Part shown: one piece after another, positions 16,851 through 37,386 of the stretch
Numbering within the stretch: position 1 is the first letter of the stretch
Layout: each line of letters starts with the position of its first letter
Source: Candidatus Doudnabacteria bacterium
GTDB lineage: Bacteria > Patescibacteriota > Doudnabacteria > UBA920 > O2-02-FULL-48-8
DNA: 64,000 nt
Reading direction: 5' to 3'
NCBI GenBank assembly: GCA_037200925.1
Contig: JBBCGO010000001.1
Location: 246,366 to 310,365 of the forward strand
The notes under the pieces: model-generated
Told to the model about the DNA's origin: nothing
Databases searched by the model: none
The model's input: the letters and a program-made list of their open reading frames with translations, nothing else
Program-made: the position numbers and the translations under genes

Positions 16851-16916
16851 CGGTATGGCCGGTTGCAATCTGGACGATTATAAGTATTATTATATCAAAT
16901 GACGAGGAGGAATTAG

Positions 16917-17999: not shown

Positions 18000-18025
18000 A
18001 AGATGATCAGAAAAACACCAAAGCT

Positions 18026-18256: not shown

Positions 18257-18393
18257 ATTGATAATTTCTTAATGATAATTTATTTTCTTACAACCATTCC
18301 AGCATATGGTTGATAGTTAATAACTGCATGCATTATAACCAAAAATGGGAACAAAAAAAAGAGCCCAAGGAACTTTCGTTCACTTAAGCTCTG

Positions 18394-19842
18394 TTAGATA
18401 ATGCTCGGCAATTCTGCTGAGAATGCGCTTTCTGATGTGGCATCAAATGCCGTCACTGCAAAGTAATACGTCACGTTTGCCGTAAACCCGATCAGAGGAA
18501 GCTGCGTGCCTGTAACTGTCGCGCCTTTGGCTAATGTATCGGGGGTTGTGCCCCAGTACACATTGTATCCGAGCACTATGGCATCCGAGCCATCGGTCTT
18601 CTTTGTCACCGGATCCCACGCCAGTGTCGGTGGAGTGACCTGGACCGTGACATCCGCCGGCGTCGTCCCGGCTAGATTCGTGCAGGTCACGCTGAACGTG
18701 GTCGTGACCCTCGGCGCAATGCTCGCGGTCGTAATGGCGCTGACAAGCGCCGGCCCGCTCCAGTTGGCATTGGCCGGACTGGCCGATAGCGTGCATGTGG
18801 TGGAGTTATTCCCCGGGTTTTCCATCACTGTCGTTGATTCACCCAAACGTATCGCCGTCGGATTGGCTGTGATGGTCGGAGTCGGTGGGATCGGGGGCAC
18901 CACTGTGATCTGAAATGATGTGGTCTGTACCACCCACTGCACTGTCGCAGCAACCACAATGGTATACGTGCCTGCGGGTGTTGTGATCCCGGTTGTCAGG
19001 GTTAAGACCGAAGCGCATGTCGGGCTGCAGACGGGGTTGGCAAACGCTGATGTCATGCCGACCGGCAACCCTGACTGGACGGAAAACGTCACGGGCTGTG
19101 TCGTCCCAAACTGCAAATTCGCCGAGATCGTACTGGTCGCGGCCGGACTGCCGTTTGTGCTGATGCCGTTGTTGGTGAGCGTGAATGACGGGGGCAGAGC
19201 TGGCGGCACAGAAAGAGTGGAGCCAAGCATGGGGCCTTGCTGCGTGCCGTCAGGCAGCTGGATCTTAGCGGATGCGTGATTGAGGTTCGTGCCTGCTTCC
19301 GCCACCGTGTCCATGTACACGAGTTCAAAGTACACGGTCTGGCCGGCGGTGAAATTTATCTGCTGCGGAGTGATCCCGTTGCAGATCGTGACCGGGTTGC
19401 TTGACTGCTCGCAGTACCGCAGCCACTGGTTCACGCTCGGCGCCACCGCATTTGTCATCTGCGCGATCGGGCTTTTACCCGCGAAATTCTGGTCAGCTGT
19501 CGAATAGTAGAGCTTGCCTTTCCCGTTCGACGCCATCCAGAATTTATATTGACCAGTCTCTGGCGCTGTGTACTGGCAGCGCATGCGCGCCACCAACGGC
19601 ACGTAAATGCCGCTGACATTCAGCAGGGCCGCGAAGTTGACAGTATTCTGGACAAGGTTGGGATTGGGATTCCCCAAAAGCCACGGATTGTCCGCGAGTT
19701 GCTGAGGATCGGTTATGGCACCTGAGGCCACATTGTTCCAGGCTTCCCAGATGCACCCTACAGACCCCGGAACCGGCGGCGTTTGTGCGCTCGCCACACG
19801 TGCGACCAATACAAAAACGCACCAGAGCAGCATTCTCTTCAT
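18394..19842 (-). CDS. Secreted carbohydrate-binding-like protein (PA14-like N-terminal domain plus Ig/FN3-like C-terminal domains); anomalously GC-rich
   Basis: 482 aa; signal peptide MKRMLLWCVFVLVARVASA; YTAPETGQYKFWMASNGKGKLYYS PA14-like pattern; C-terminal FN3-like YYFAVTAFD; GC far above window average with many spurious overlapping ORFs on both strands. Confidence 0.5.
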   Translation of the reverse strand: MKRMLLWCVFVLVARVASAQTPPVPGSVGCIWEAWNNVASGAITDPQQLADNPWLLGNPNPNLVQNTVNFAALLNVSGIYVPLVARMRCQYTAPETGQYKFWMASNGKGKLYYSTADQNFAGKSPIAQMTNAVAPSVNQWLRYCEQSSNPVTICNGITPQQINFTAGQTVYFELVYMDTVAEAGTNLNHASAKIQLPDGTQQGPMLGSTLSVPPALPPSFTLTNNGISTNGSPAATSTISANLQFGTTQPVTFSVQSGLPVGMTSAFANPVCSPTCASVLTLTTGITTPAGTYTIVVAATVQWVVQTTSFQITVVPPIPPTPTITANPTAIRLGESTTVMENPGNNSTTCTLSASPANANWSGPALVSAITTASIAPRVTTTFSVTCTNLAGTTPADVTVQVTPPTLAWDPVTKKTDGSDAIVLGYNVYWGTTPDTLAKGATVTGTQLPLIGFTANVTYYFAVTAFDATSESAFSAELPSII

Positions 19843-19946
19843 TTATGCGGTCCTCCGTTTTTTCCTGTTGCTATATGTAACGCTGTCAAAGTTGCGGCGT
19901 TACACTTAAAGTACGTACAAAAAAATCATTAACCCAATAAAGAAAT

Positions 19947-22844
19947 ATGCTCAATTTAAGCAGGTTTTTATACGATACTCAAGGAAAAAACCGCATATTA
20001 AAAATAATCTCGCCGATCGCGGTGATCATCATTTCGGCAGTGCTTGTGCCTCCGATGAGCGCGCATGCCGATACTTTCACATCGCGCTGCACGGCCGCAG
20101 GAGTGGTACTCTGCAGCGGATTTGATTCCGCAGATGACATAGACAGCTTTGTTTCAGGAAATGAGGTCGGGACAACTCTCGGCGTGTTTGACCCCACGAA
20201 CCAGGCATCCGGAACAGGCTCCATGAAATTTACGATCCCGAGCCGCACCGGCGCCAATTCATCCGGCGATTATGAACGCCTGATCAATGAATCAAGCGCC
20301 GGCTACAAAACCGGCTCCGTGTTCTTCGTCCAGTTCCGCCAGCGCTTCTCGCCGGAAATGCTTTCATCTGCCATGGGCGGCAACGGCTGGAAGCAGGTGG
20401 AGATCACCACACCCTTCAGCACTTACGGCGACGCGCCCGGCATCGGGCTTTTTAACCAATCATTCGGCAACATGCCAGTGCTTTACGTCAACGGCGCAAC
20501 CTTCACGCAAACTCCCTCTGACGGCACTGCCGTTTCTTATGTCGCCAACCAGTGGATGACCTTTGCTTTTGAGATCCATGTCGGCGATTGGGGCGCGTTC
20601 AACACGACTGTGAAGGTTTGGGCAGCTCCGGAAAACCAGCCCTTAAAACAGATCTACAATGTGACCAATGCCGCTCCAGGGCAAAACCCCAGCGACCCTG
20701 ATTCCGGGTACAACAAAATAATGTTCGGCCCGAACAACACAGGCAAACTTGCAACAACTGTCCACACGCCGGCCACGACCTGGTATGACGAACTGGTAGT
20801 TTCAAACAACCAAATTGCGGATCCGTTCACACCGGCTGACACCACAGCTCCGGTGCTTGCGGAAGTAACTCCGGTCCCAACTCCGACTAGCGACAATACT
20901 CCTGACTACACTTTCTCTTCCACAGAAGCCGGGACCATTACTTATGGCGGTGATTGTACGTCTGCGACCACGGCTGCGGTGGTAGGCAACAATACTGTAA
21001 CATTCAACACACTTGCAGACGGAGTTCATATGAATTGCACCATCATGGTCACTGATGCTGCTTCAAACCAAAGCCTGCCTTTGAGCGTAAATACTTTTAC
21101 AGTGGACACAACTGTTCCGGATACAACTCCTCCCGTCATCTCGGCCGTCACTTCCACAGCGATAACCCAAACCGGCGTGACGATCAGCTGGATGACGGAT
21201 GAAAATTCAACTTCACAAGTGGATTATGGCCCAACCACGAGCTACGGCTCATCCACGGCATTGGACACATCTTTGGTCACAAGCCACAGCCAGAACATCA
21301 CAGGATTGACTGCCGGGACCATTTACCACTTCCATGTAAAATCAGCCGATGCGGCAAACAATCTTGCCACTTCTGATGATTTTAATTTCACAACTCTTGC
21401 CGCAACTGACACCACAGCTCCGGTGCTTGCGGAAGTAACAGCAGTACCAAGCCCAACCAATGACAATACTCCTGACTACACCTTCTCATCCACAGAAGCG
21501 GGTACTATCACCTACGGTGGTGATTGTTCTTCCGCTACGACATCTGCGGTTGCGGGTAACAACACCGTAACCTTCAACACACTTCCTGACGGAGTTCACT
21601 CAAACTGCACTATCGTGGTCACTGACGCATCAGGAAATGCAAGTACTGCGCTCAATGTCAGCGCCTTTACTGTGAACACGGCCACTCCCGCACCTTCTCC
21701 GCTGACAGTGACCATCAATCAGTCCGCAAAGCAGGCTGACCCAACCAAAAAATCTCCGGTCAGCTTCACAATTATTTTCTCGGAAAAAGTAAAAGGATTC
21801 AAAGCCTCGGATGTTAATTTCTCCGGCACTGCCACAGTGGGCAAGCCTTATCTGTCAGGCTACAGTGCAACTTTCAAGATCTACGTGCCTGTCAAAACCA
21901 GCGGAACTGTCATCGCTACGATTCCCGCGGGAATTGCCACTGACAAGGCCGGCAACAGCAATGCCGCTTCCACTAGCACGGACAATACGATAACTTTTGA
22001 CAACACTCCTCCGGTTATCTCAGCTGTGGCTTCATCTGCCATAACTCTGGACAGCGCCACCATCACCTGGACCACTGATGAGAATTCGGATTCTCAGGTT
22101 GACTATGGCACGACCAACTATTATGGCTTCTCTACAAAATTGGATAAAACCTTGGTGATGAGCCACAGCCAGAACCTGACCGGACTTTTGGCACTCTTAG
22201 ATAAAAATGACCGATATCACATGAGACCACAGCCAATTGCCGGAAAAACCATACACTTCCGGGTCAGGAGTAAAGATGCGCTAGGAAACCTGGCCAAATC
22301 AGCTGACTTCACATTCACCACGGTGCAGCCGGCCAATGGAGCCGCTCCGACTGTGACCATCAACCAGGCTGCGGGACAGGCTGACCCGACAAATCAATCG
22401 CCCATCAGTTTCACTATCGTATTCTCAGAACCTGTGATCGGATTCTCAGCCAAAGATGTGAAGATCTCCGGTGTTGAAGAATACGGGTATGCGTCCCTGT
22501 CCGGCACAGGCCCCACTTATACATTAAGTGTTCCTGTCAAAGACAACGGCACTGTCACTGCCTCGATCCCAGCCAATGTGGCCATTGACTCGGACGGCAA
22601 CGGCAACGTGGCCTCCACCAGTACGGACAATTCCGTAACATTCAAACGCAACAAAATATACGCGGACGGCACTGTCATCTGCGGCTCAGGCCCCACTCTT
22701 TACATGGTTTCAAATCATGGACATGACAAACTTAGCATCCCGTCCATGGCTGTATTCAACAGGCTGAAACTTTCGCTGAAGAATGTGGTCAGAGTGGATG
22801 ACAGAGACCTGTCTGATTACCACGACGGCGGGCAAGCACATTGA
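19947..22844 (+). CDS. Large secreted multi-domain surface protein (Ig-like/FN3-like repeats) with conserved C-terminal module
   Basis: 965 aa; signal peptide; two FN3-like copies (PPVISAVTSTAIT...YHFHVKS and PPVISAVASSAIT...), two Big-like copies (DTTAPVLAEVT...), C-terminal IPSMAVFNRLKLSL...Y.DGG module. Confidence 0.7.
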   Translation: MLNLSRFLYDTQGKNRILKIISPIAVIIISAVLVPPMSAHADTFTSRCTAAGVVLCSGFDSADDIDSFVSGNEVGTTLGVFDPTNQASGTGSMKFTIPSRTGANSSGDYERLINESSAGYKTGSVFFVQFRQRFSPEMLSSAMGGNGWKQVEITTPFSTYGDAPGIGLFNQSFGNMPVLYVNGATFTQTPSDGTAVSYVANQWMTFAFEIHVGDWGAFNTTVKVWAAPENQPLKQIYNVTNAAPGQNPSDPDSGYNKIMFGPNNTGKLATTVHTPATTWYDELVVSNNQIADPFTPADTTAPVLAEVTPVPTPTSDNTPDYTFSSTEAGTITYGGDCTSATTAAVVGNNTVTFNTLADGVHMNCTIMVTDAASNQSLPLSVNTFTVDTTVPDTTPPVISAVTSTAITQTGVTISWMTDENSTSQVDYGPTTSYGSSTALDTSLVTSHSQNITGLTAGTIYHFHVKSADAANNLATSDDFNFTTLAATDTTAPVLAEVTAVPSPTNDNTPDYTFSSTEAGTITYGGDCSSATTSAVAGNNTVTFNTLPDGVHSNCTIVVTDASGNASTALNVSAFTVNTATPAPSPLTVTINQSAKQADPTKKSPVSFTIIFSEKVKGFKASDVNFSGTATVGKPYLSGYSATFKIYVPVKTSGTVIATIPAGIATDKAGNSNAASTSTDNTITFDNTPPVISAVASSAITLDSATITWTTDENSDSQVDYGTTNYYGFSTKLDKTLVMSHSQNLTGLLALLDKNDRYHMRPQPIAGKTIHFRVRSKDALGNLAKSADFTFTTVQPANGAAPTVTINQAAGQADPTNQSPISFTIVFSEPVIGFSAKDVKISGVEEYGYASLSGTGPTYTLSVPVKDNGTVTASIPANVAIDSDGNGNVASTSTDNSVTFKRNKIYADGTVICGSGPTLYMVSNHGHDKLSIPSMAVFNRLKLSLKNVVRVDDRDLSDYHDGGQAH
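20838..21439 (+). repeat. Tandem intragenic duplication (32-mer GACACCACAGCTCCGGTGCTTGCGGAAGTAAC at 20838 and 21408; period 570 bp)
   Basis: identical 32-nt strings 570 bp apart in frame within the surface-protein gene. Confidence 0.8.
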
Positions 22845-22957
22845 ATTTGCGAGGAGTCCCGATTATTCGGGACGACGAAGCAATCGGCTCTCGGCAGGAT
22901 AAAGGGAGCTCCGCGGTTTAGACTGCCACGCTCCGACTAAAACGTCGGAGCTCGCAG
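22842..22957 (+). repeat. 116-bp structured repeat, copy A (inverted partner at 35410..35525, 3 mismatches)
   Basis: starts at the TGA stop of the surface-protein gene; internal hairpins GTCCCG-attatt-CGGGAC and CTCCGAC-taaaac-GTCGGAG. Confidence 0.85.
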
Positions 22958-22962
22958 ATGCG

Positions 22963-23376
22963 CTAAATCGTAGATCCAAAACAACCCCCTAAATTCGGGG
23001 GTTGTTTTTTTTGGCTAAAAATATTGGGGTATGTTTCCATCAATTTTTTGAGTGAGTCGGTATCTCCAGAGATGCGCAAAACCTCGGCAAATAAACGCTG
23101 GTCTCTCAGATTGCTTTCGGAGCGCATGATCCCGTACAGTACTATCCTCGGATCAGGGCTGTCTTTGGAACTGCGCAGTTCAATTCCTGATTTTGCGGCC
23201 ATTGCTTCTACCTGCAGCACCACGGGCTTATCCGGCGTGGTCGGCTGTTTGAATTTTTCCAGGACGTTTTGATAAGCTTTTTCATCTATCTGCCCGCCTG
23301 ATTCCTTATAGCGCTCAAAGCTCTTCTCGGGGCTGTCCTCGGTTTCTTTTTCGTTTCCTTGTGATTCCCTAGCCAT
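22963..23376 (-). CDS. Hypothetical acidic protein
   Basis: 137 aa; 3' end runs through the terminator hairpin so true stop may be earlier. Confidence 0.35.
   Translation of the reverse strand: MARESQGNEKETEDSPEKSFERYKESGGQIDEKAYQNVLEKFKQPTTPDKPVVLQVEAMAAKSGIELRSSKDSPDPRIVLYGIMRSESNLRDQRLFAEVLRISGDTDSLKKLMETYPNIFSQKKQPPNLGGCFGSTI
22980..23012. terminator. Bidirectional rho-independent terminator
   Basis: AACAACCCCC-taaatt-CGGGGGTTGTT flanked by A-run and T8. Confidence 0.7.
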
Positions 23377-23437
23377 ATTTTTAACGGTTAATGCCTATCT
23401 GTATTATACACCCAAAACAAGTTTTCTTTCATTCGCT

Positions 23438-23453
23438 CATTCGCGCGAATGAT
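23438..23453. repeat. 16-bp perfect palindrome TCATTCGCGCGAATGA (ATTCGCGCGAAT family)
   Basis: self-complementary; upstream of 22963..23376. Confidence 0.6.
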
Positions 23454-23512
23454 TCCAAAAGGGCCGGTAGAGCAGCCGCTATTTTTTTCCAGCGAGGCTT
23501 AGAAAAAGTGGC

Positions 23513-23553
23513 GAAAGAATAAATTCAACGCCTCAGGATCACCTGAGGCGTTG
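23513..23553 (-). terminator. Rho-independent terminator (GCCTCAGG...CCTGAGGC hairpin family)
   Basis: AACGCCTCAGG-atcac-CCTGAGGCGTT followed by T-rich run on minus strand; same hairpin family at 43890. Confidence 0.55.
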
Positions 23554-23589
23554 AAGGTTTTAAGCAATCCTCAAAAGTTCTTTCTAAAT

Positions 23590-24132
23590 TTACTGTGCGA
23601 CAATGTTGGCGCAGGCAACATTCGCGGTCACACCCGCAGCCGATTTATCCACGCTTACCGACATCGGATTGGCCGTAAGGTCGGCCATGTTTGCGTTGAC
23701 CGTAGTATCGGATTTTCCGTTTACCGTGGAATTGAGCGTATATTTTACCGCGCCGGGGTTGGCGCAGGTACCTGAGTTAATATGCGCAGGCAAAGAGAGA
23801 TTCAGCGGCCCGCCGACCGTATTCAGTACGACATCGGTTCCATTCGGCGTTTGCGTAAACGTTACGTTGCCGGCTACTCCGGAACTATTCTGCGTCTGAA
23901 GCGGTATTGTTAAGTTTTGCGGCGCATTTGCTCCGGCCGATCCGTTGGCGCCGTTGGATCCGTTTGCCCCAGTGGCTCCGGTCGCCCCATTAGACCCGTT
24001 GGTTCCCGTACTCTGAGATTGGTTATTCTGCTCCGTGGTGGTTGTCTTCGGTCTTAGGAAAAAATACCAACAGGCGAGCAATAAGAGGATAACTAAGATG
24101 GCGATAACCCACCATTTGCTTGTATTGTTCAT
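23590..24132 (-). CDS. Membrane-anchored secreted protein with collagen-like Gly-X-Y repeats
   Basis: 180 aa; N-terminal TM WWVIAILVILLLLACWYFF; GTNGSNGATGATGANGSNGANGSAGA (8 G-X-Y triplets). Confidence 0.5.
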   Translation of the reverse strand: MNNTSKWWVIAILVILLLLACWYFFLRPKTTTTEQNNQSQSTGTNGSNGATGATGANGSNGANGSAGANAPQNLTIPLQTQNSSGVAGNVTFTQTPNGTDVVLNTVGGPLNLSLPAHINSGTCANPGAVKYTLNSTVNGKSDTTVNANMADLTANPMSVSVDKSAAGVTANVACANIVAQ

Positions 24133-24184
24133 AGAATATATTTAATGATGTGAAGATCTCGACCTTTATTTAAGTGCTTGGTCA

Positions 24185-24514
24185 TTATACCAAAATACGC
24201 CAAGGATTAAAACTTACAATTTTTGACAAAAATATCAGAAGCGCTGCCTGCTCCAGGATCAGCAAACTTATGCCGAGCGGAAAATAGAATTTCCTGGTCT
24301 TGTGATGAAAAAATATCATGCCCAAAAGTACGCCCAACGAAGCGAAGAATATGGCGATAAAAAAATAATAAACTTCCGGTATGCGTTCCGTATTGTCTAC
24401 GCTGCTTTTTTTGTCTATCCCGACCAAAATAAACGCGAGCAGGTTTACCGCAGCTAATCCTCCGTAAAAAATTAATAGCCCGTTGGTCATAAAAATTTGA
24501 ATAAATCCCCGCAA
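24185..24514 (-). CDS. DUF1294 family membrane protein
   Basis: 109 aa; GIDKK...ERIPE...GG..G...HKTRK signature. Confidence 0.5.
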   Translation of the reverse strand: MRGFIQIFMTNGLLIFYGGLAAVNLLAFILVGIDKKSSVDNTERIPEVYYFFIAIFFASLGVLLGMIFFHHKTRKFYFPLGISLLILEQAALLIFLSKIVSFNPWRILV

Positions 24515-24553
24515 TCCTGAACTCGTTTCAGGATCTCTTTGTCCTGGGTATTG

Positions 24554-24582
24554 CCAACTATTCTCCTATTCGCGCGAATGAG
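24554..24582. repeat. ATTCGCGCGAAT family repeat copy (CCAACTATTCTCCTATTCGCGCGAATGAG)
   Basis: shares 12-nt 5' flank CCAACTATTCTC and palindromic core with 16521 and 16821 copies. Confidence 0.6.
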
Positions 24583-24601
24583 TCCTACTCACCCTGAGCT
24601 T

Positions 24602-24841
24602 CTAGATATCAAACTCCTCAGGATCAAAACCCAATTCTTTAGCCGCTTCTAAAAAATCTTTTTTCTGAGGTTTTTTGATCCCTTTTTGCTTCGCATAAGT
24701 CTGGTTCAGATGAACGAGAATCCTGTCTATCTCTTCCTGGCTAAAGCCTCCTTCCATAAGCGAATTTATCCATCCGTGCATGTCTTCATCAGGAACAGAA
24801 GCGCCCACAATTTCACCTCGGTTTTCAAATCGATTTTTCAT
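24602..24841 (-). CDS. Hypothetical protein
   Basis: 79 aa acidic ORF. Confidence 0.3.
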   Translation of the reverse strand: MKNRFENRGEIVGASVPDEDMHGWINSLMEGGFSQEEIDRILVHLNQTYAKQKGIKKPQKKDFLEAAKELGFDPEEFDI

Positions 24842-24847
24842 GAATCC

Positions 24848-25522
24848 TCATTTATTAATAAATAAATGTGCATATTTCTCTCCAAAGTGTCGATACGCAC
24901 ACCATTTACAGTCTGGGTTTTCTGGAGGAACCGGACCTTCCAGCAATTTATTTACATCTTTCATGAATTTCAGAAAGTTTTCTCTTTCCAAATCTACTTC
25001 AACCCATTTGGGTGGAAAGGTTATTATTGCCTGATTTTTTTCAAATCTAACCTGATCTGGATACATGATAACTAACCCTAATTTAGTTATTTGTTTAGAT
25101 TTTCCTTTTTCTGGAAATTCAAATGCGTAATGATAAGCCTGAAGTTGCTTCTGGTATTTAGCGCCCTTTTCTTCATCAGGAGTCGTAATTTTAAAATCGA
25201 TAACTAGGTAAGTTCCATCCTTCTGCCTTACAAGAAGATCATATTTCCCTTTAATATACGCGTTGGTTTTCGGGATCAATTTTGATTCTACATATCCTTC
25301 CTGACTTTCCACTATACCTTCAGGCAAAAGCGGTGAGAGTTCCCGAAGGTTATTTCCGACCAACTTTCCCTGAAGAAGTGCGTTCAAAGTTGAAAAAACA
25401 CCGGGAAATGGCATCGAGGGTCGCTGCATCCCGTGTTTTATTTTAAGATAATAACAACACTTACATTCTTCGTATAAGTATGCAAAATCTGAAGGGCTTA
25501 GTTTGTACTTCTTATTTTCCAT
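24848..25522 (-). CDS. Cas4/RecB-like PD-(D/E)xK nuclease with Fe-S cysteine cluster (no CRISPR context)
   Basis: 224 aa; N-terminal CKCCYY cysteines, LVIDFKIT (D..K catalytic), QLQAYHY (QxxxY), C-terminal CKWCAYRHF CxxC. Confidence 0.55.
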   Translation of the reverse strand: MENKKYKLSPSDFAYLYEECKCCYYLKIKHGMQRPSMPFPGVFSTLNALLQGKLVGNNLRELSPLLPEGIVESQEGYVESKLIPKTNAYIKGKYDLLVRQKDGTYLVIDFKITTPDEEKGAKYQKQLQAYHYAFEFPEKGKSKQITKLGLVIMYPDQVRFEKNQAIITFPPKWVEVDLERENFLKFMKDVNKLLEGPVPPENPDCKWCAYRHFGEKYAHLFINK

Positions 25523-25540
25523 AAACCTATAAATTATCTT

Positions 25541-25556
25541 TTAATTACGTAATTAA
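25541..25556. promoter_or_regulatory. 16-bp perfect palindrome TTAATTACGTAATTAA about 20 bp upstream of the Cas4-like gene (second copy at 31858)
   Basis: self-complementary; located within the likely promoter of 24848..25522. Confidence 0.55.
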
Positions 25557-25667
25557 ATATGTTATTTATAAATCCAGTTCGTCAATATCAATACCCGGAT
25601 CTTCCAAACGGGTTAAAGCTACCTCTGGATCGACGAGTTCATTCGCCGTTCTTTCCCTAAGTCCGTC

Positions 25668-27552
25668 TTACGCAATAGAAACATATTTTAATAATTCTTT
25701 TTTATTATTTTTTTTATCTTTTGGTTTGTATCCTACAAAATTACAAATATCAATAATCTTTACGATAAATTTATCAAATTCTTTTTTACTCATTGTTATA
25801 TTATTGCCAACCAGATTGCTAGTCTGCCATTCAGCAGACACGTTAAGTGGGGCTTGGGGTCTATGACCTTGAATATTAAAAATATCGTGATCTTTTTGTG
25901 TTATCCAGCCAGCACCAACTTCTGATACAGCGCCCCAAGATCTAGCCATATGATCACTAGTAACATAAATAACAAACATTTTTTTATCAGAATAACTATC
26001 GACAAAAAAACTACGAAGATATTCAAAAATACCTATACGGTTAGGGATACGGGAGTCCGCATTGTCCGAATTTGAATAAATAATATCCTCATCCGGAAGT
26101 CCATTAAAAGATAACATCTTATATATAACATCAGACAAGGGTTTGTCTTCTAGAGTCTGACTAATCAAAATTCTTTTTTTCTGCGAATCAACTCTTCTCT
26201 TGATACCAACAATTGGAAGAAATTTATTCATCTCATCCCGGATTATTCTCTGTATGGCTGGAATACTGCCACCAAATCTGCTAGCGATCTTGCTGGTTGC
26301 CCCACCTGACGCTGCCGTTTTGTACTCATCTACTTTTTTTCTTAATTCTTCTTCGTCTTTCTTCTCTCTTTCTTGCTTTTGCTGTTCTTTCTTCTTTTTA
26401 TTAAATTGTACCCAAACATTACGCATGTTAATTATACGAGGCAGTAATTCATCTCTCACATATTTTATTACTTCTATATATCGAAGATCATCTGTCTTAT
26501 ATCCTTGCCGGTTACTTAATGACATGTCTGGTAGCTCCGTGGCTTCGAAAAGGTCAATATGTAATTGTCCAACTATAAACACTTCTTGAAGTTTATTAGC
26601 ACCAACAACAGGTAGAATATTATATTCACCTAGTTTACCATTGGAGAGTATTGAAATAAAATTATCAGGAAAATCGTTCGAGTCTTTCTTTCTGTCTTTT
26701 GTAGTTCTGTAAGCCCCTACCCAACCTTTTATAATTACTTCATATTTTTTATCTTCGCCTTTTCTGTTGACTAAGTTCAACGGGATAGCCACGGCACTGT
26801 CTTTTTTAAGAAGACCACCTTCTATCTCATTATTTTTGCTAAATCCGGAATCAAAGTACTTAGCAAGTCCCTGATACTCTTTGCCAAAAGTAATCAAAGC
26901 ACCAAGGCCTCTAATTATCTCTTTATCAAAATTATCAATAATAATTGTATCTTTATCAGTGATAATATGAATTCTAAAATCTTTACTAACTAATGGAAAA
27001 ATTTTAAGTAAATTGTTGCGTATTGCGGTTACGGTGGCATTTAGTCCATATTGCGGATTTGTCATAACTATTGACGTGCCATTTTTCCGAATATATTTAA
27101 ATTTAATATCTTTATTAGCGATTGCTTCCAATCTATGATCTTCGCCTACGTTTCGAGAAAGAATAAAACCAGATTTTTCATTATCTTTTACAGTCATCAC
27201 TGAAACTTTTTCTGAAACTGAAAGAGCAGCTAACTTGCCAACACCTTTGCGACCCATTCTTTTACGAGTCCCGTCTTCAGTATAGACGTCTTTTTTTGTT
27301 GTGCGAGTCTCAATAGCTACATCAAGGTATTTTTTTTATATCACCATCTTCATAAGACATCCCAATACCATCATCTTCAACAATTATACGATCCTCTTTT
27401 TTTATAATGTATACATTTGAAGCCATCGCATCATATGCGTTTGCAATTAATTCAGCTAAGACATAATAAATATTAGTATAAAGACTCGGTCCCAACAATT
27501 CCAAAACTCTAGGACTTATATTGAGTTTATATTCACGGTTATTATTATTCAT
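25668..27552 (-). pseudogene. MORC-like GHKL (HATPase_c) ATPase, interrupted by -1 frameshift at A8 homopolymer (27331..27338); possible phase-variable gene
   Basis: N-terminal 76-aa ORF has ELIANAYDA (N box) and DDGIGM (G1 box); downstream 529-aa ORF begins with GRKGVGKLA (G2 box); removing one A from the A8 run joins both frames into one ~634-aa protein. Confidence 0.65.
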
Positions 27553-28637
27553 ACAAGCATTCTAATATGCTCTTTAATACTCTTTCCGATAACCGATCCA
27601 AGTCTAACTGGCACAGCATTTCCTATAAACTTAGCAATATTCTTACTTACGATGGATGTTTTCTTATCCACAAACATATAATCCATAGGAAAAGTTTGAA
27701 AGAGGGCGGCCTCTCGCAGACTTATTGCTCTATCTTGGTCCGGATGGCCAAACCGGCCATTTCCAAGACCAATACATTGCGTTGTCATTGTGGGAGCAGG
27801 TTGGTCCCATTTCATCCTACCATATACGGTACTACGATAAGTTTTTCCAGATTCACTCTTATGACACTTAAGTTGCAAATCCTCACTCCAACTTTTTGAA
27901 TTACCTCCGTTGACAGGGGTTGCTTTAATTCTTCGTAAATTAATATCATTTAATTTCCTTGCTCTATGCAATGGATCTTTATTGCTAATATCCCCATCTT
28001 TTAAAGGCTCCAGGTCCGCAATCACATCACGGACAGTGACACGGTTATTTATATGGGTTCTTTTTATTAAAGAAATATTCCCAAATTTAGAAGCTAAAAG
28101 CACAAGTCTTTTTCTCCTCTGCGGGACTCCAAATTCAGAAACATCCACAACCTCGTACTTGTAATTATAATTATTTTGCTTAAGTGTTTTTACAAACTTA
28201 GCAAAAACTGGATACTTTTTCATGTTAGCAAGGCTGCTAACATTTTCCATTGAGACTATATCAGGCTGAGTTTCAGCAATAAGCCTAGCAAATTTATCTA
28301 AAGGCTCAAGCTGTTTTTTAGTTATTTTGTTCAAGTTTAATTTTGAGAATGGCTGACATGGAGCGCATCCTGCAAGTACTCGTATGGTTTGATTTTTTGG
28401 CCCGAACAATTTATCAATCTGCTGAGGAGTTACATTAATAATGTCTTGATCAATAAACTTTGTTTTATTGTTGTATTCATAGCCGAACTTACAGCTACTA
28501 TCATTGTCTATGCCTGCAACAACATCAATGCCTTCTTTAATTAGTCCGTGCGTTAAACCACCAATACCACAGAATAAATCAATAACTTTTATTCTTTTTC
28601 TTTTATTTCTTTTCATAGTTTTATTATTTGCTTTCAA
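27549..28637 (-). CDS. dcm: DNA (cytosine-5)-methyltransferase
   Basis: 362 aa; motif I VIDLFCGIGGLTHG, motif IV PCQPFS, ENV motif; ATGA overlap with downstream ATPase start. Confidence 0.85.
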   Translation of the reverse strand: MKANNKTMKRNKRKRIKVIDLFCGIGGLTHGLIKEGIDVVAGIDNDSSCKFGYEYNNKTKFIDQDIINVTPQQIDKLFGPKNQTIRVLAGCAPCQPFSKLNLNKITKKQLEPLDKFARLIAETQPDIVSMENVSSLANMKKYPVFAKFVKTLKQNNYNYKYEVVDVSEFGVPQRRKRLVLLASKFGNISLIKRTHINNRVTVRDVIADLEPLKDGDISNKDPLHRARKLNDINLRRIKATPVNGGNSKSWSEDLQLKCHKSESGKTYRSTVYGRMKWDQPAPTMTTQCIGLGNGRFGHPDQDRAISLREAALFQTFPMDYMFVDKKTSIVSKNIAKFIGNAVPVRLGSVIGKSIKEHIRMLV

Positions 28638-28718
28638 CTATGGCTATTTCGCCTTCACTCAATCCATACAACTTATATACTTCCTGATCAATTTTACTAC
28701 AACAATCAAGCTGCAGTT

Positions 28719-29813
28719 TTATTTCCCAGATTTAGTTCTATTGTCATCTTTGCACAACATCCGACAATTTTCTGAAATTGTTCTTCCTCCTTCGTGCCAA
28801 GGTTTTATATGATCAGCTTCCATCTCGGAAATATCGAAATGTTTTTTGCAAACAGGGCAAATACCTTTTTGTTTCTCATAAGCTTCGCGCTTCATCTTTT
28901 CTGTAAACGCCCGAATTGAAAGGTATTTTTCTTGCCTCGTCAAAACATACGGATAAATACCAGACTTCTTGGTAACATCTTCGTCTTGCATTAACTCTTT
29001 AATTTCCGTTTCCAATTTAACAGAACTTAGTTTTTTATCTTTGAATTCATTATGCAGCTCGCCCCATTCCACATGAGCCATTTCGCGCCGATAATTTGGA
29101 AATGTCTTTTGCGCCCAGGAAATTACGTCCTGAAAATATTCCCACAACTTGTCAGCGCTTTTGTCTTTCTGATGTTTGCCCATGTAATCTTCAATTTTAT
29201 CATCACTGATCCAGCGGAGTGCCGTTTCCAGATACTCTTGGCGGTTCAATGCTCCACTCACATAGTCATGAGCCAGTAAATACGCCGGCGCGTTGCTCTT
29301 ACTGAAATAACGCTTGGCATCGGTTACCCAAGGCCCTGAATAAATAGCGTTCAACAATTCTTGAGGTGTAAGTTTCTCGCCAGCGGTATTGATGACCTTA
29401 AACCACGCCAGCTTTTCATCATCCGTACCTTCGCAAAAATATACCATGAGCGGATAGTCGCGGATATTCTTTTTCTCTTCTTCCGTCAAGTTATCGAAAT
29501 ACATCTGGTACCCGCGGTTCATAACGTTAAAATCCCCGGCCAAAAAGTTACAGATGCTTACAGTGCGCTGCTGGCCATCAAGGATTTCGAAACTACCACC
29601 ACTGTTTTTCACCCAGTACATCGCGTTTAGAGGAAACCCGCCCATCACCGAATTAATAACCGCGATCTGCTGTTCGGGTCTATAAATAAACTCGCGCTGG
29701 TATTTCGGGCGGATATTCAGACTGCCGCCATACCCAACGACACCCTCCTCTTCAATGTTTTTATACCCGTCAACTATTTTATGTATCGGAATTTGATGTA
29801 GTTCAATTTTCAT
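28719..29813 (-). CDS. DUF262 (ParB-like nuclease domain) plus C-terminal HNH endonuclease (GmrSD-like architecture)
   Basis: 364 aa; DGQQRT motif of DUF262; C-terminal CPVCKK...ADHIKPWHEGGRTISENCRMLCKDDN HNH motif. Confidence 0.7.
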   Translation of the reverse strand: MKIELHQIPIHKIVDGYKNIEEEGVVGYGGSLNIRPKYQREFIYRPEQQIAVINSVMGGFPLNAMYWVKNSGGSFEILDGQQRTVSICNFLAGDFNVMNRGYQMYFDNLTEEEKKNIRDYPLMVYFCEGTDDEKLAWFKVINTAGEKLTPQELLNAIYSGPWVTDAKRYFSKSNAPAYLLAHDYVSGALNRQEYLETALRWISDDKIEDYMGKHQKDKSADKLWEYFQDVISWAQKTFPNYRREMAHVEWGELHNEFKDKKLSSVKLETEIKELMQDEDVTKKSGIYPYVLTRQEKYLSIRAFTEKMKREAYEKQKGICPVCKKHFDISEMEADHIKPWHEGGRTISENCRMLCKDDNRTKSGK

Positions 29814-29846
29814 ATTGGTTAAGTTATTTTATGTTTCATAAACCTA

Positions 29847-30476
29847 TTAAATATTAAAATACCTACAGATAAACCGTTTTAATCTAAAAAAATTAAGACC
29901 TGTTAAAAGCCAAATAAATGGTACAACTTTAGAATTTTTTTCTTTTTCTAATTCTTTCCTGAGACTAAGATATGCTGTACGAGCTTGCCCATCATGCTCT
30001 CCGCCTATTAATTTATGGACTACAACAAGTAAATCTTCAGCTCTCTTTTTTATCTCTGGTTTTATATTGTCCCAAACCTCAGCGTTAGAAAGAAAATTAT
30101 GGTGTAATGCTACTCCTTGATTGAAATTACTTAGTGCCTGCTTAGCAGAAACTAGGGTTTTAATAAGCTCTGGATTAGTAAATAAACTACCGGCAGTAGC
30201 GATTGAATTGTCTATGGCCAAGCTTTCTATTTTAAAAACAATTTTTCTCAAAAGTTCTTTATCCTCCCTTATCTCTTGAGATCTGCTTTCCGGCCAATTC
30301 GTGCTAAGCCAATATTGAACTCCCTCGTCTAGTTCGGCTTGGATAGCATTTAATACACTACTTCTAGTATGCCAAATTCCTAGCCGATAAATAATCCAAG
30401 CAACTATAGCTGTGATAACAACTGATGACCCACTTGGATGCTCGCTAATTGTTGTAAATATTGAATTTATGTCCAT
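29847..30476 (-). CDS. Hypothetical protein with N-terminal TM segment
   Basis: 209 aa; SSVVITAIVAWIIY hydrophobic segment. Confidence 0.35.
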   Translation of the reverse strand: MDINSIFTTISEHPSGSSVVITAIVAWIIYRLGIWHTRSSVLNAIQAELDEGVQYWLSTNWPESRSQEIREDKELLRKIVFKIESLAIDNSIATAGSLFTNPELIKTLVSAKQALSNFNQGVALHHNFLSNAEVWDNIKPEIKKRAEDLLVVVHKLIGGEHDGQARTAYLSLRKELEKEKNSKVVPFIWLLTGLNFFRLKRFICRYFNI

Positions 30477-30518
30477 TGTTTTTCCTTCAACATTGGATTA
30501 AATTTATTTCCAAAAAAA

Positions 30519-31622
30519 TTATTTTTTCAAACGGATTAAAATACGAGGAAATGTATTTTTCAGTCCTGCTGAAGTTTTTAAGACCGGACCAGCATTTAAG
30601 TCACTATAATTTTTTGCATCGATAATTGTATAAACCTTGCTCTTTAAAGCAGGGTCACCAGCTCCTCTTTTAGCCATACCAATAATTTCGAACTGTTCAG
30701 GATTGTACTTATCAAGGAACGTAATCGGAACACCCATGACACTATTGTAATCTTGTGGAATATCTAATTTTTTCGAAACTTCAATAGCATCGTAGTTCTC
30801 GTATTTAGGATATTCTTCGGGATTGTATGTTTTGTAAAAAGTCATTTTCTCATGACGCTTTGTGGTATCAAGGTTTGTAAACCATAAAATACGACCAAAG
30901 CTAAAATACTTTATACCATTCACAACTTTCTTTCTGGATTCTGTATCTATGTCGTATTCTTTGGGGACTTGAAACCATTTTGTCCCGCCATTGTCATAGC
31001 CAAGCCACAATTTATTTTCTTTGATGAGTTTAAAAATTTCTTTATAGGTTATGGCATTCTGGTCCCCTAGAATCAAAAACTTTTTTTTGTGTTCAACAAG
31101 CTGTGCCACGTAGTCACGAAAAAGAGAAAACGGCGGATTGGTGACCACTATATCTGCTTGGTTGAGAAGTTCTATACATTCCTCACTGCGAAAGTCTCCG
31201 CCGTCTTTGAGGGAGGTTGAAACATTTGCATCGTGCCGGAGCAACCATTCGACATCAGAGAGGCCAATAGCGCCATCAGAATTGGAATCTGGAACTTCAT
31301 TAATTTCAATTTTAAACGGCTCTTTGCCTTTCGGTTTTAGGCCTTTGACTTCAAGGAGTGGTAACTGTCCTCCCGCAATTGGCGACTTTGTATAACTGGT
31401 GGTGATTAACTTTTTGAGACCGAGAGCATTAAAATTAGCAGCGAAATATTTAAAAAAATTACTCTCGAACGGATCATCGCAATTGCAATAAATAATCTTA
31501 TCCCGAAACTGTTCTTTGTAATGTTTTAGTTCTTTTTCAATATCAACAAGCTGAGTATAAAACTCGTCTTTCTTAGCTGCGCTTGCTTTGTGTAAGTTGC
31601 TATTTAATGATTTATTTGACAT
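30519..31622 (-). CDS. DNA methyltransferase, N6-adenine/N4-cytosine class (NPPF motif)
   Basis: 367 aa; DIVVTNPPF catalytic motif IV; AT-rich. Confidence 0.6.
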   Translation of the reverse strand: MSNKSLNSNLHKASAAKKDEFYTQLVDIEKELKHYKEQFRDKIIYCNCDDPFESNFFKYFAANFNALGLKKLITTSYTKSPIAGGQLPLLEVKGLKPKGKEPFKIEINEVPDSNSDGAIGLSDVEWLLRHDANVSTSLKDGGDFRSEECIELLNQADIVVTNPPFSLFRDYVAQLVEHKKKFLILGDQNAITYKEIFKLIKENKLWLGYDNGGTKWFQVPKEYDIDTESRKKVVNGIKYFSFGRILWFTNLDTTKRHEKMTFYKTYNPEEYPKYENYDAIEVSKKLDIPQDYNSVMGVPITFLDKYNPEQFEIIGMAKRGAGDPALKSKVYTIIDAKNYSDLNAGPVLKTSAGLKNTFPRILIRLKK

Positions 31623-31623
31623 T

Positions 31624-31800
31624 CTATTTCTTCCAATCCCTGACTATCAAATGTTTCCCTTTTTGTATCACTTTAACTTTCTGTCTTTCCCGCCAGCCGA
31701 GCTTTTCCACCAATTCGATCGGCAAGGTTAAGCCCAAAGACTTCCTGCCCATTCGGGTCAATTTTCTGATATTTTGGTCGCCGTGCTTTCTAACACCCAT
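31624..31800 (-). CDS. AbrB/MazE-fold (swapped-hairpin) small DNA-binding protein, not in ORF track (58 aa)
   Basis: manual translation MGVRKHGDQNIRKLTRMGRKSLGLTLPIELVEKLGWRERQKVKVIQKGKHLIVRDWKK; stop 2 nt before MTase ATG; shorter alternative start at 31752. Confidence 0.45.
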   Translation of the reverse strand: MGVRKHGDQNIRKLTRMGRKSLGLTLPIELVEKLGWRERQKVKVIQKGKHLIVRDWKK

Positions 31801-31857
31801 GTGATTAGCTCTTCGTCTGGATCCCGGATCAAGTCCGGGATGACAGCCAGTATGTAA

Positions 31858-31873
31858 TTAATTACGTAATTAA
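31858..31873. promoter_or_regulatory. Second copy of palindrome TTAATTACGTAATTAA, upstream of the AbrB-like/MTase operon
   Basis: identical 16-mer to 25541..25556; followed by hairpin ATCCCGGA-tcaag-TCCGGGAT. Confidence 0.55.
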
Positions 31874-31911
31874 ATCTTACCTCTATTCTGCCACTTTTTG
31901 CCCGAAAAAGC

Positions 31912-31938
31912 AAAAAGCGGCCTTTCGGCCGCTTTTTG
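31912..31938. terminator. Bidirectional rho-independent terminator
   Basis: GCGGCC-tttc-GGCCGC flanked by A5 and T5. Confidence 0.6.
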
Positions 31939-31948
31939 TACTAGTCTT

Positions 31949-32197
31949 TTAAGCAGGATTGTAATTTAGCACTCGCCAAGTATTATGTTCTTTGATAGCT
32001 TGAATGACTTTTTGATTTTTTCCTTTTACTTTTCCGGCAGAATATCCACTCCAAGTATTAAATGCATCATCGCCCTTTATGGTAAATATGACCAAAGACC
32101 CGTTTGGAATTTTGTTCCAAACTCTCGGATTCTTAGATGCATATTTATCAAACTCAAAAGAAAGCTTGATATTTTTCTGTACAAAAAGTGTATTCAT
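31949..32197 (-). CDS. Hypothetical protein
   Basis: 82 aa; terminator immediately downstream. Confidence 0.4.
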   Translation of the reverse strand: MNTLFVQKNIKLSFEFDKYASKNPRVWNKIPNGSLVIFTIKGDDAFNTWSGYSAGKVKGKNQKVIQAIKEHNTWRVLNYNPA

Positions 32198-32225
32198 AGT
32201 AGTTTTAAATTAATATTTTTTATTT

Positions 32226-32537
32226 CTATTTCGATATTAGATAATTTTCTTTGATTTTTAGAAAATCTCTTTCAATTAATAATTTAGCCTGTATAAAGGC
32301 CTTATTATTATCATCTATGCCTAATGGTACCCAATATTCTCTGTCATGTAAATGATACTTATGCACATGGCCTAAACCATGACAATTATCAATCCTCATT
32401 ATAGTTTTCCATTTTGAATCAATTCTGGCGTAGTATTGAACCACAAATTTAACAATCTTGCCTCTATTCCGGCTAAATTTAATCCTTAATTTATCATCTT
32501 CAGTCAAAAATCTAGTATTATCCACTTCCCTGATCAT
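32226..32537 (-). CDS. Hypothetical protein
   Basis: 103 aa; AT-rich. Confidence 0.35.
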   Translation of the reverse strand: MIREVDNTRFLTEDDKLRIKFSRNRGKIVKFVVQYYARIDSKWKTIMRIDNCHGLGHVHKYHLHDREYWVPLGIDDNNKAFIQAKLLIERDFLKIKENYLISK

Positions 32538-32632
32538 TTTAGTATTTTAGATTGTTTAACAAAAATAGCGGCCTTAAGCCGCGCAAGCTATCAACATAAT
32601 GCTTATTAATTATATTCCTTTTTCCCAAAAAG

Positions 32633-32992
32633 TCAAATTTTATGGTGACTTAATGGTTCGTGTTTATCTCTTATTAGTTCATTGGTTTTCAAATCTCTAA
32701 CAACTTCATGATATTCATCTTTTTCTCTGTCAATAATTCTTACTTTATCAACTCCAAATTCTTTATCCTTGGTTATAATATTTTGAAACCAACCCTGAAT
32801 AATCTCTTTTAATGGTCTTTTAAATCCGTTTCTCTTGTGTTTAAGTTCGAGGCTCATTCTTATGTTTGTAGTTTCTTTGATATGAACCTTAATCATAGCG
32901 GCGACTGAGCCGCAATTTGAACAAGGTTTTTCCTCAAAATTTAACTTTCGTCTACAATTTTGACAAAATTTTTCTTGAGTAACTTCAGTCAT
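32633..32992 (-). CDS. Zinc-ribbon protein, hypothetical
   Basis: 119 aa; CQNCRRK...CSNCG CxxC...CxxC; terminator GCGGCCTTAAGCCGC downstream. Confidence 0.4.
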   Translation of the reverse strand: MTEVTQEKFCQNCRRKLNFEEKPCSNCGSVAAMIKVHIKETTNIRMSLELKHKRNGFKRPLKEIIQGWFQNIITKDKEFGVDKVRIIDREKDEYHEVVRDLKTNELIRDKHEPLSHHKI

Positions 32993-33033
32993 ATATTTAT
33001 ATTATTATTTCACAAATCGCTAGATAAATCAAA

Positions 33034-33069
33034 CAAAAAACCAGCCTTTCGGCTGGTCTTTTCTTTTTA
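33034..33069. terminator. Bidirectional rho-independent terminator
   Basis: CCAGCC-tttc-GGCTGG with A7 upstream and T-rich run downstream. Confidence 0.6.
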
Positions 33070-33282
33070 CATTTCCGGCAGAGCAGAGAACTTCTTTTTG
33101 AAGTCATCCATCCACTTGGTTGTTTCCTCAGGTGTCATTTTCTTGACCTGTTCCGCAAGTTCCGGATGGGCCTGGTTTATATGAACCATGCCGTTGCTGA
33201 CCATTTCTTCGGGGGTGTTGCCGCTGATCATCACGGTGCAATCGGCAGGGCCACCCATTTGGGAGCACAAGATCTGCTTCAT
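33067..33282 (-). CDS. Small hypothetical protein
   Basis: 71 aa. Confidence 0.35.
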   Translation of the reverse strand: MKQILCSQMGGPADCTVMISGNTPEEMVSNGMVHINQAHPELAEQVKKMTPEETTKWMDDFKKKFSALPEM

Positions 33283-33308
33283 ATTATAGGCTTCCTTTTT
33301 TCTTAGTT

Positions 33309-34553
33309 CTAATTTTGAATTCCGCCGTCATCATAACTGCCAAGCTCGCTGTCGGAAAGCTTGACGATCTTGCCCAGGGACAAACCTAACCGGTTAAACA
33401 CGGCCATGGAAGGAATGCCCATTTTAGCGTCGCCTGCAACCAAGTAAACCGTAGCTGCGCTTCCTTTGATCAAAGTCCCGTCCGGGTAGCCCATGATCCG
33501 TCCGACGCTGACAGCCGCGAACTGGTCAGACGAAATAGTCTGGACATCCGAGAACTTTAACCCGCGGGCAGTGAAGATAGTCGCAGTGCTGAACGGTCTT
33601 AGCATCCCGTTGACTACCAGATAAACAGTACCGCTGCCGGCCACTTTCACCACTGAACCGTTTGCGTAGTTGAACATCACACTTGGCGGCGTAGGAGCCG
33701 GGGTCGGTGTCGGAGTCTGATAAACAGGGGTCGGATACATGATATTCGGGGTCGGGTACGGGGTTGGGTATTGTACAGGCGCACCGGGACTTGGCGAAAC
33801 AACTGTGTTTGAATCCAGCGTCACTGCGGTCTGGGCAAGTGCCCGGCCATTGAGAGTTGCGCCGGTGTTGAGCACAATTGCTGATTGATCCAATATATTT
33901 CCGTTGAAAACAGATGTCGTGCCAAGCGTGGTTTGGCCGCCGACAGCCCAAAAAATATTACCGGCCTGGGCCCCGCCGCTTAAAATAACATGTGTTCCGG
34001 AACTCGTGGTGAGAGTTTGCGCTATCTGGAAGATCCAGACATCCGAAGCAGATCCTGCGAGTGTGACATCCGACGGTATGGTCACGCCTGTGCCCCATTT
34101 ATACAATCCCGGAGCAAGCGTCATGCCGCCAATGTTTCCGGCGCCCAATTCCGTGGCAGTGGGCAGTGTCCGGCCCACGGCATCAACATATGCGGTTTGC
34201 ATGTCCATTATCGCAGTGGTCATGTTCGCCGGTGTGGGGTCTGCGTAGCCTGGCGCGTATGCTTTTCCGCTTACCAATGCTGAGGTGGAAAATGCGCCTC
34301 CGGCAGGAAGAGTTAAGGCAAAGCCTGTCAGGGAGCTCGCCGCAGCCGGGCTTACTCCAATGTCCCCGACAATACTCGTGGTTCCAGTGGTAGAGATCCC
34401 TGTTTTTGCCAGGATGGCAAAATTACCCGCAGTTCCGAGGTTGACCATTGCCGGCCCTGCGGCCAAAGCAGTTGCCGAGAAAGCCAACGCCAGACCCGCG
34501 ATAAGACCCACAAACATATTTCTTCTCAAGATATTCCTAAAATTTATTTTCAT
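33309..34553 (-). CDS. Ice-binding-like (DUF3494) secreted protein with Pro/Thr linker and shared C-terminal module
   Basis: LGTAGNFAILAKTGISTTGTTSIVGDIGVSPAAASSLTGF matches DUF3494 N-terminal signature; PTPYPTPNIMYPTPVYQTPTPTPAPTPP linker; C-terminal IPSMAVFNRLGLSL...YDDGG; start moved to ATG 34553 preceding the signal peptide. Confidence 0.7.
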   Translation of the reverse strand: MKINFRNILRRNMFVGLIAGLALAFSATALAAGPAMVNLGTAGNFAILAKTGISTTGTTSIVGDIGVSPAAASSLTGFALTLPAGGAFSTSALVSGKAYAPGYADPTPANMTTAIMDMQTAYVDAVGRTLPTATELGAGNIGGMTLAPGLYKWGTGVTIPSDVTLAGSASDVWIFQIAQTLTTSSGTHVILSGGAQAGNIFWAVGGQTTLGTTSVFNGNILDQSAIVLNTGATLNGRALAQTAVTLDSNTVVSPSPGAPVQYPTPYPTPNIMYPTPVYQTPTPTPAPTPPSVMFNYANGSVVKVAGSGTVYLVVNGMLRPFSTATIFTARGLKFSDVQTISSDQFAAVSVGRIMGYPDGTLIKGSAATVYLVAGDAKMGIPSMAVFNRLGLSLGKIVKLSDSELGSYDDGGIQN

Positions 34554-34847
34554 TTGTTTCTGATTAATTTTTTCTATTATAGATTTAATTATAAAACAGG
34601 TTGAACGTTTAGTCAAGGAAAGTTTTTATGCTACCTTTTGTGCAGACGAAAAGGTAGCACCAAAAGCTGCCGGCGGCTCTCGGCAGCACAGAGGTAGTGA
34701 ATTTAGAGAAAAATTTGCCAGAATTCTTAGCTCGCTTCGGCGTGTTCGCAAGGCCTAATCGGCGTTGCGAACGCTAACCCAGCCTCGCTCGCGTCAAATT
34801 CTGACCAGATTTTTCAAATTGCCGGAAAAACCGAAACCTAACTCGGC

Positions 34848-35372: not shown

Positions 35373-35409
35373 TCTGTAATTTTAAGATAAAAAAAGAAAA
35401 ATATCGAAT

Positions 35410-35525: not shown

Positions 35526-35593
35526 GTTCTCACGATTGCTTGCCAAAGTTATGAAAATCTTATAATTTACAAGTATCATTAAAATCAAATCTT

Positions 35594-37375: not shown

Positions 37376-37386
37376 CGCCTTCTGAA

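Follow-up and report, generated by a model that had tools for sequence, protein, structure and literature searches.

A GHKL-TIR gene split at an A8 homopolymer in a Candidatus Doudnabacteria assembly, most likely by a sequencing artefact in a putative restriction-modification-like module

Phase variation through simple sequence repeats affects restriction-modification genes in Helicobacter, Campylobacter, Haemophilus, Neisseria and Mycoplasma. The gene described in this work combines a homopolymer inside a restriction-like ORF with a domain architecture that recalls three described groups of proteins. The first one is paraMORC4, in which GHKL and S5 domains are followed by a C-terminal TIR domain and whose genes lie among restriction-modification genes that include cytosine methylases (Iyer, Abhiman and Aravind 2008, PMC2292703). 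The authors suggested that its TIR domain might act as a nuclease or bind a ligand (PMC2292703). The second one is represented by R.HgiDII, a GHKL-containing type II enzyme with a C-terminal domain that has no assigned fold (PMC2441816). The third is SpbK, a TIR NADase abortive-infection protein of the Bacillus subtilis element ICEBs1 (PDB 9phb), whose N-terminal four-helix bundle senses the phage portal protein YonE. The SpbK residues E192, G194 and W197 were mutated in the study of that protein (E192 to alanine), and in the model of that study E192 lies at the NAD+ site (PMC12847820). The GHKL-TIR architecture was thus already predicted computationally in 2008, and we found no experimental study of the GHKL-TIR family in the searchable literature.

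The gene lies on the minus strand of the window, by which we mean the whole stretch of 64,000 nucleotides that was analysed. Its reading frame is broken by a run of eight A residues (T8 on the plus strand) at positions 27330..27337, one base away from the interval 27331..27338 given by the sequence-only reading. On the 5' side of the break, a 76-aa ORF (27322..27552, minus strand) encodes the N-terminal fragment, in which ELIANAYDA is the N box and DDGIGM the G1 box. Its minus-strand codons GAA GAT GGT are followed by GAT ATA AAA AAA ATA CCT TGA (D I K K I P and stop), the TGA coming right after the A8 run. The C-terminal fragment is a 529-aa ORF when counted from its first ATG (25668..27257, minus strand), where it starts with MGRKGVGKLAA; the open frame really extends up to the A tract. 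The G2 box (GRKGVGKLAA) lies in this ORF, together with the second, MutL/MORC-like domain, the coiled coil and the TIR domain. NCBI has annotated the two pieces of this Candidatus Doudnabacteria MAG as separate 'ATP-binding proteins', MEJ0021255.1 for the N-terminal and MEJ0021254.1 for the C-terminal fragment. Their record is the 964,444-bp contig JBBCBH010000057.1 of GCA_037975565.1, on which the A8 tract occupies positions 208716..208723, as derived from the ranges of the record.

Tract length toggles the frame by single-base changes, A8 leading to a stop after 76 aa and A7 to a protein of 627 aa. Deletion of one A in silico yields a single ORF (25668..27552, minus strand) that reads ...GDIKKYLDVAIETRTTKKDVYTEDGTRKRMGRKGVGKLAA... 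at the junction, whereas addition of one A (A9) does not restore the frame. The sequence-only reading had proposed that a GHKL ATPase gene is split at the A8 run and that A7 would read through into the downstream ORF carrying the G2 box. Both proposals are confirmed with small numerical corrections, among them the length of the repaired product, which is 627 aa and not about 634 aa. In the repaired protein, the Pfam domain HATPase_c_3 (PF13589) covers residues 30-145 (27117..27465, minus strand; E = 3.2e-18, 66.5 bits for a cut-off of 25) without a break, across the junction residues 74/75. In a family alignment of 38 sequences, the 33 closest homologues are gapless across the junction, and two residues just upstream of it are absent from five distant homologues. 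As both the unbroken domain match and the alignment of homologues span the junction, we consider that the observation is real and that the join does not reflect the chance fusion of two ORFs.

The N, G1 and G2 boxes belong to one contiguous Bergerat-fold domain of the repaired protein, and the initial GHKL assignment and the motif calls were correct. The ATPase residues E34, N38, D60, G62, G64, G103 and G105 are invariant in the family. The N-terminal 400 residues or so are homologous to those of R.HgiDII and R.BbrUII (NCBIfam NF050001, E = 1e-60, residues 8-412), which similarly have a C5 methyltransferase as a partner. Nevertheless, we rejected the identification of the protein as a BbrUII/HgiDII restriction enzyme, because the score of 205.9 bits is below the cut-off of 550 and only the N-terminal part matches (positions 1-385 of a profile of 659). 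A coiled coil and a TIR domain replace the C-terminal domain of HgiDII. The matches obtained with PADLOC were to REase_II, i.e. type II restriction-enzyme models, and to spbK (2.5e-16).

The SpbK-like TIR domain spans residues 455-566 (25854..26189, minus strand; profile E = 2.6e-13 with SpbK PDB 9phb), and residues 113-213 of 9phb were matched by both phmmer and hmmsearch. Residues E544, G546 and W549 align with E192, G194 and W197 of SpbK, and they are invariant in all 38 family members, as are V545 and A547. The domain has an SpbK-like TIR fold with a glutamate that aligns with E192, and it may have NADase activity. The resemblance has its limits, as the two serines of the HSS motif of SpbK are replaced by T and L in the 627-aa protein, and a GHKL ATPase with a methyltransferase partner stands in the place of the portal-sensing helix bundle. 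The AlphaFold2 model of the protein comprises the GHKL domain, a second alpha/beta domain, a helix of about 70 residues (356-425) and a C-terminal alpha/beta domain. Its pLDDT is 79.6 overall but falls below 50 over residues 539-550. Foldseek searches against the PDB aligned about 390-460 columns of the model with the ATPase cassettes of MORC2/MORC3 and with the N-terminal 40-kDa fragment of MutL (E values of about 1e-11 to 1e-10), and the N-terminal columns also align with Hsp90. According to the model, a second, S5/transducer-like domain would follow the GHKL domain.

With its GHKL domain, MutL/MORC-like domain and C-terminal TIR domain encoded next to a cytosine methylase, the protein resembles paraMORC4, and its family shares with paraMORC4 a patchy distribution that suggests lateral transfer. 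From the published description of paraMORC4, we infer that the 627-aa protein is paraMORC4-like by architecture. The motif Hx[ST]xD, described for the first strand-helix loop of the TIR domain of paraMORC4, has a counterpart of the form H-T-x-x-D in the family (H in 31/38, T in 27/38 and D in 36/38 sequences), and this particular protein has Q-T-L-E-D.

Directly upstream of the GHKL gene, a gene for a C5 cytosine DNA methyltransferase (27549..28616, minus strand; 355 aa as called; PF00145, E = 3e-58) ends in a 4-nt overlap, ATGA, between its stop codon and the ATG of the GHKL gene. The GHKL gene is translationally coupled to the methyltransferase gene by this overlap. We collected 80 homologous loci from contigs of one genome per species. 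The GHKL gene has a full-length tblastn match in all of them, and a methyltransferase homologue is present in 64, adjoining the GHKL gene in nearly every case. The relatives number more than 2,400 and come from Candidate Phyla Radiation bacteria, archaea and numerous bacterial phyla, with 50-69% identity. The gene belongs to a very widely transferred pair formed by a C5 methyltransferase and a GHKL-TIR protein. In the window it is surrounded by a low-GC island, from about 24 to 33 kb, with 30-41% GC compared with about 50% in the flanks. A megablast search of E. coli genomes and plasmids with the segment 25400..27800 yielded no close DNA relative. We also considered the downstream PD-(D/E)XK (Cas4-like) gene as a conserved nuclease partner. 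This candidate was discarded, as it accompanies the GHKL gene only in the same or a near-identical strain and the 80 related loci contain no match to it at E <= 1e-5. As for other elements, a 124-nt inverted repeat has two copies only within the window and no Rfam match at E <= 0.1, and there is no tRNA or tmRNA gene in the window.

It is tempting to speculate that the methyltransferase and the GHKL-TIR protein form a restriction-modification-like module. The methyltransferase would mark self DNA, and the GHKL module would engage unmarked DNA using ATP, probably dimerising upon ATP binding as do MutL, MORC and Hsp90. The TIR domain would be the effector, either cleaving NAD+, as SpbK does, or acting as a nuclease, as proposed by Iyer et al. 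(2008). All of these steps, from self-marking to ATP-dependent engagement and TIR action, are hypothetical. What the analysis establishes is the domain composition, the coupling with the methyltransferase and the conservation of the ATP-binding motifs and of the glutamate aligned with E192.

The provenance of the sequence bears on the origin of the A8 tract. The assembler hifiasm builds its contigs from reads that have been corrected and applies no separate consensus step. According to the sections of the source publication that deal with assembly, the MAG comes from a hifiasm-meta co-assembly of four PacBio HiFi read sets (SRR28211698-SRR28211701) from deadwood samples, with a mean read length of 18.3 kb; Illumina data were assembled apart and hybrid assembly was dropped, and those sections report no polishing step for the co-assembly (PMC11613949). 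In HiFi reads, errors arise mainly from misestimated homopolymer lengths (PMC7545148). We compared the window with the Logan assembly of SRR28211699, which was made from this run alone and is thus based on one of the four co-assembled HiFi runs. Three Logan contigs align, L086 with window positions 8394..20865 (12,472 bp, 100% identity, gapless), L001 with 22867..35500 (12,632 bp, no mismatch and two single-base gaps) and L083 with 35496..53819 (18,324 bp, 100% identity, gapless), and the ranges 1..8393, 20866..22866 and 53820..64000 lie outside the comparison. Over about 43 kb there are no substitutions and two indels, at both of which the window has A8 where Logan has A7.

One of the two indels is the tract that breaks the GHKL gene. 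The product of the A7 allele on L001 is 100% identical to the repaired 627-aa protein, and the corresponding protein of a near-identical strain (GCA_015689235.1) is likewise intact at 627 aa, with two substitutions at the protein level. The truncated products of 76 and 529 aa are found on NCBI records only and on no Logan contig of any run. The other indel, at 23005..23012 on the minus strand (213041..213048 of the record), falls in the A-tract that immediately precedes a terminator-like hairpin (CAACCCCC GAATTTA GGGGGTTG, then TTTT) at the 3' end of the ORF at 22963..23376 (minus strand). A change of length at this place has no meaning as an on/off frame switch. The two sites are 4.3 kb apart and differ on the same strand and with the same sign, a distance that fits within one 18-kb HiFi read, and the use of one lower-quality read as the contig backbone would fit both +1 differences. 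Where the two assemblies could be compared, seven further A/T8 runs have the same length in the window and in Logan (15789..15796, 17286..17293, 17413..17420, 18353..18360, 25708..25715, 31081..31088 and 46608..46615). Within the GHKL gene itself, the same agreement holds for one T7 run, one other A8 run and the remaining four A7 runs.

These observations resemble the homopolymer indels of unpolished HiFi assemblies, with single-base changes confined to A/T runs of 7-8 in about 43 kb that are otherwise free of substitutions, the comparison here being between two assemblies that share part of their reads. The split is most likely a sequencing artefact, because the tract is A7 and the gene unbroken in a second assembly, for which a subset of these PacBio data was used. 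From this comparison of two partly read-sharing assemblies, we consider it probable, with good confidence, that A8 is a +1 homopolymer miscall kept in the unpolished HiFi co-assembly. In the deadwood Candidatus Doudnabacteria bacterium itself, the tract would then be A7 and the gene intact. Assembly error had been mentioned by the sequence-only reading as an alternative to switching, and it is supported by the unpolished HiFi source, the A7 allele with its intact gene in the second assembly and the twin indel at the terminator.

Homopolymers do mutate at high frequency, however, and natural inactivation of restriction genes is frequent, which speaks against an artefact. A sub-population or the strain of another sample might have undergone +1 slippage, leaving the GHKL gene off and the methyltransferase intact, as a real polymorphism without any switch. 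The co-assembly would then have happened to take up an ordinary loss-of-function allele. Four samples were pooled and Logan covers one of them, and A8 could be the allele of another sample or a minority variant. Both indels are inside the same 12.4-kb segment with flanking inverted repeats, as if a variant haplotype of this segment had been used, and the loss of toxic restriction components is common. However, a separate lineage would have to differ over about 43 kb by two +1 events in A7 runs only, without a single substitution. The second of these events is in a terminator A-tract, where it has no selective meaning, and the truncated products are missing from the Logan assemblies of all runs. 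We therefore give this possibility a small chance. Alternatively, the gene might be a fixed pseudogene, but this is unlikely given that the same data contain an intact allele.

Of its two alternatives, the sequence-only reading had stressed phase variation. The tract would in that case be a contingency locus, at which slipped-strand mispairing would toggle the GHKL-TIR gene between A7 (on) and A8 (off). As in the phase-variable restriction-modification genes, a homopolymer is found inside a restriction-like ORF and a change of one base toggles the frame. The idea also draws on the restriction-modification context of the gene, on the host dependence of Candidate Phyla Radiation bacteria and on the disagreement in length between read-sharing assemblies at exactly this tract. 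This difference, A8 in one assembly and A7 in the other, may reflect heterogeneity within one population; it is also seen at the terminator, where a frame switch would mean nothing, and homopolymer length is what the platform chiefly gets wrong. Moreover, the other A7, T7 and A8 runs of the same gene do not differ. The A/T tracts of known systems with useful switching rates are also longer than A7 or A8.

We then looked at the tract across the family, using the 77 homologous loci that could be aligned at the site, or 78 sequences with L001. No frame break occurs at the site in any of the 77 loci, and none has a run longer than A7. The sequence-only reading had regarded the lack of a tract in homologues as a sign against switching, and the homologous loci agree with that sign. 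A7 is the longest homopolymer at the site, in 4/78 sequences, and runs of three bases are the commonest. The residues are variable too: I-K-K is found in 19/78 sequences, several of which encode lysine with AAG, and IAN, VQK, IQK, IEK and others are found elsewhere. The gene has 33% GC and 37% A, with five A7 runs, one T7 run and a second A8 run. When the repaired gene was compared with a synonymous-codon shuffle, its seven runs of at least seven A residues were no excess over the 5.3 +/- 1.5 expected (p of about 0.2). Neither in the 78 sequences nor as an excess in the gene is there any indication that the tract is kept or lengthened beyond coding need. The short runs of the homologues, the variable residues and the lack of A-run excess thus leave nothing that marks the tract as selected for mutability. 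A7 is the outcome of ATA-AAA-AAA (Ile-Lys-Lys) in an AT-rich, lysine-rich gene. Unlike the repeats of phase-variable restriction-modification genes, the native A7 tract is short and neither conserved nor lengthened, A runs are not enriched in the gene, and a twin discrepancy is present at a terminator. We consequently do not retain the ON/OFF switch proposed initially, and an evolved phase variation appears highly improbable.

Another scenario in which A8 would be genomic is programmed recoding, in which transcriptional slippage, or a +1 ribosomal shift with tRNA-Lys moving on A AAA AAA A, would yield the full-length protein. The sequence lets tRNA-Lys pair again one nucleotide further on, which would give exactly ...DIKKYLD..., and the rescue of genes by poly-A slippage is known in endosymbionts. 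However, a plain intact A7 ORF is present in the same data and no homologue frameshifts at the site, which makes recoding exceedingly doubtful. We also scored ORF growth after +/-1 edits at all 211 homopolymer runs of the window and found no second gene split in this manner. Apart from the A8 tract, the candidate frameshifts that we checked correspond to gene junctions or to stretches that are identical to Logan. For instance, the candidate at 8743 divides a complete DNA_alkylation gene from its neighbour, and that at 56124 is close to a gene pair coupled by ATGA.

Our preferred reading, a homopolymer miscall, calls for caution with unpolished HiFi metagenome assemblies, which can split genes at A7/A8 tracts and thereby mimic phase variation or pseudogenes. 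In this case, a single 627-aa gene is represented in GenBank by two fragment proteins, MEJ0021255.1 and MEJ0021254.1. The repaired protein has an SpbK-like TIR domain in the place of the usual nuclease of a restriction enzyme. In the highly improbable event that the A7/A8 difference is true heterogeneity of the deadwood Doudnabacteria population, slipped-strand mispairing would switch a methyltransferase-guarded GHKL-TIR effector in an episymbiotic Candidate Phyla Radiation bacterium, setting phage defence against self-toxicity or DNA uptake. Contingency switching would then be seen for the first time in this lineage, and for the first time with a TIR-bearing restriction-like gene.

The low-GC defence island that contains the GHKL-TIR gene lies inside a 12.4-kb segment enclosed by an inverted repeat, whose 124-nt arms (22842..22965 and 35402..35525) are 96% complementary. 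The repeat is present in two copies, and no more, within the window; it gave no Rfam match, and no tRNA was found in the window. The Logan contigs of SRR28211699, one of the four co-assembled PacBio HiFi read sets, have their breakpoints exactly at these arms. The inverted repeat could be the mark of an invertible or mobile segment, or it could be nothing more than a repeat at which the assembly graph breaks. Also within the segment is a gene for an ice-binding-like protein (33309..34616; PF11999; 414 aa as called).

Close to one arm, the two assemblies differ at a second homopolymer, with A8 in the window versus A7 in Logan at 23005..23012. A minus-strand ORF (22963..23376) has a terminator-like hairpin at its 3' end, whose A-tract is the run in question, and the difference alters the tail of the ORF's product (137 aa vs 128 aa). 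Another Logan contig, L086, terminates at ~20865, within a Pur_ac_phosph_N/Big_12 gene (19947..22844) whose product is called as 965 aa in the NCBI record. A look-up of that exact product returned zero matches, and either an internal repeat or a variant may lie near the contig end. Elsewhere in the window, 38267..43819 encodes a protein with Big_5, alpha-2-macroglobulin-like and PT-HINT/Vint matches; its 1850 aa are large for a Candidate Phyla Radiation genome of roughly 1 Mb.

After the GHKL gene come a gene for a Cas4-like PD-(D/E)XK nuclease of 224 aa (24848..25522) and a 79-aa ORF (24602..24841). These two were found beside the GHKL gene only in this strain or one nearly identical to it, and in none of the 80 related loci. 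Directly upstream of the GHKL-TIR/methyltransferase pair is another restriction-modification-like module (28719..31622, minus strand), comprising an EcoRI-type adenine methyltransferase (30519..31622), a 209-aa protein without any family match (29847..30476) and a DUF262/GmrSD_N-HNH protein (28719..29813) with a hit at 1e-131 to one of PADLOC's type II restriction-enzyme models. The same adenine methyltransferase and HNH pair adjoins the GHKL module in a Candidatus Endomicrobium locus (L020).

The C5-methyltransferase and GHKL-TIR pair itself (25668..28616), which carries a TIR domain where HgiDII-type enzymes have a nuclease, has more than 2,400 relatives, represented here by loci L002-L081. 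Its hosts include the Candidate Phyla Radiation, Proteobacteria, Firmicutes, Bacteroidota, Verrucomicrobiota and other bacteria, as well as the archaeal ANME-1, Altiarchaeales and Woesearchaeota. This wide taxon spread, at 50-69% protein identity, points to frequent lateral transfer of the module.
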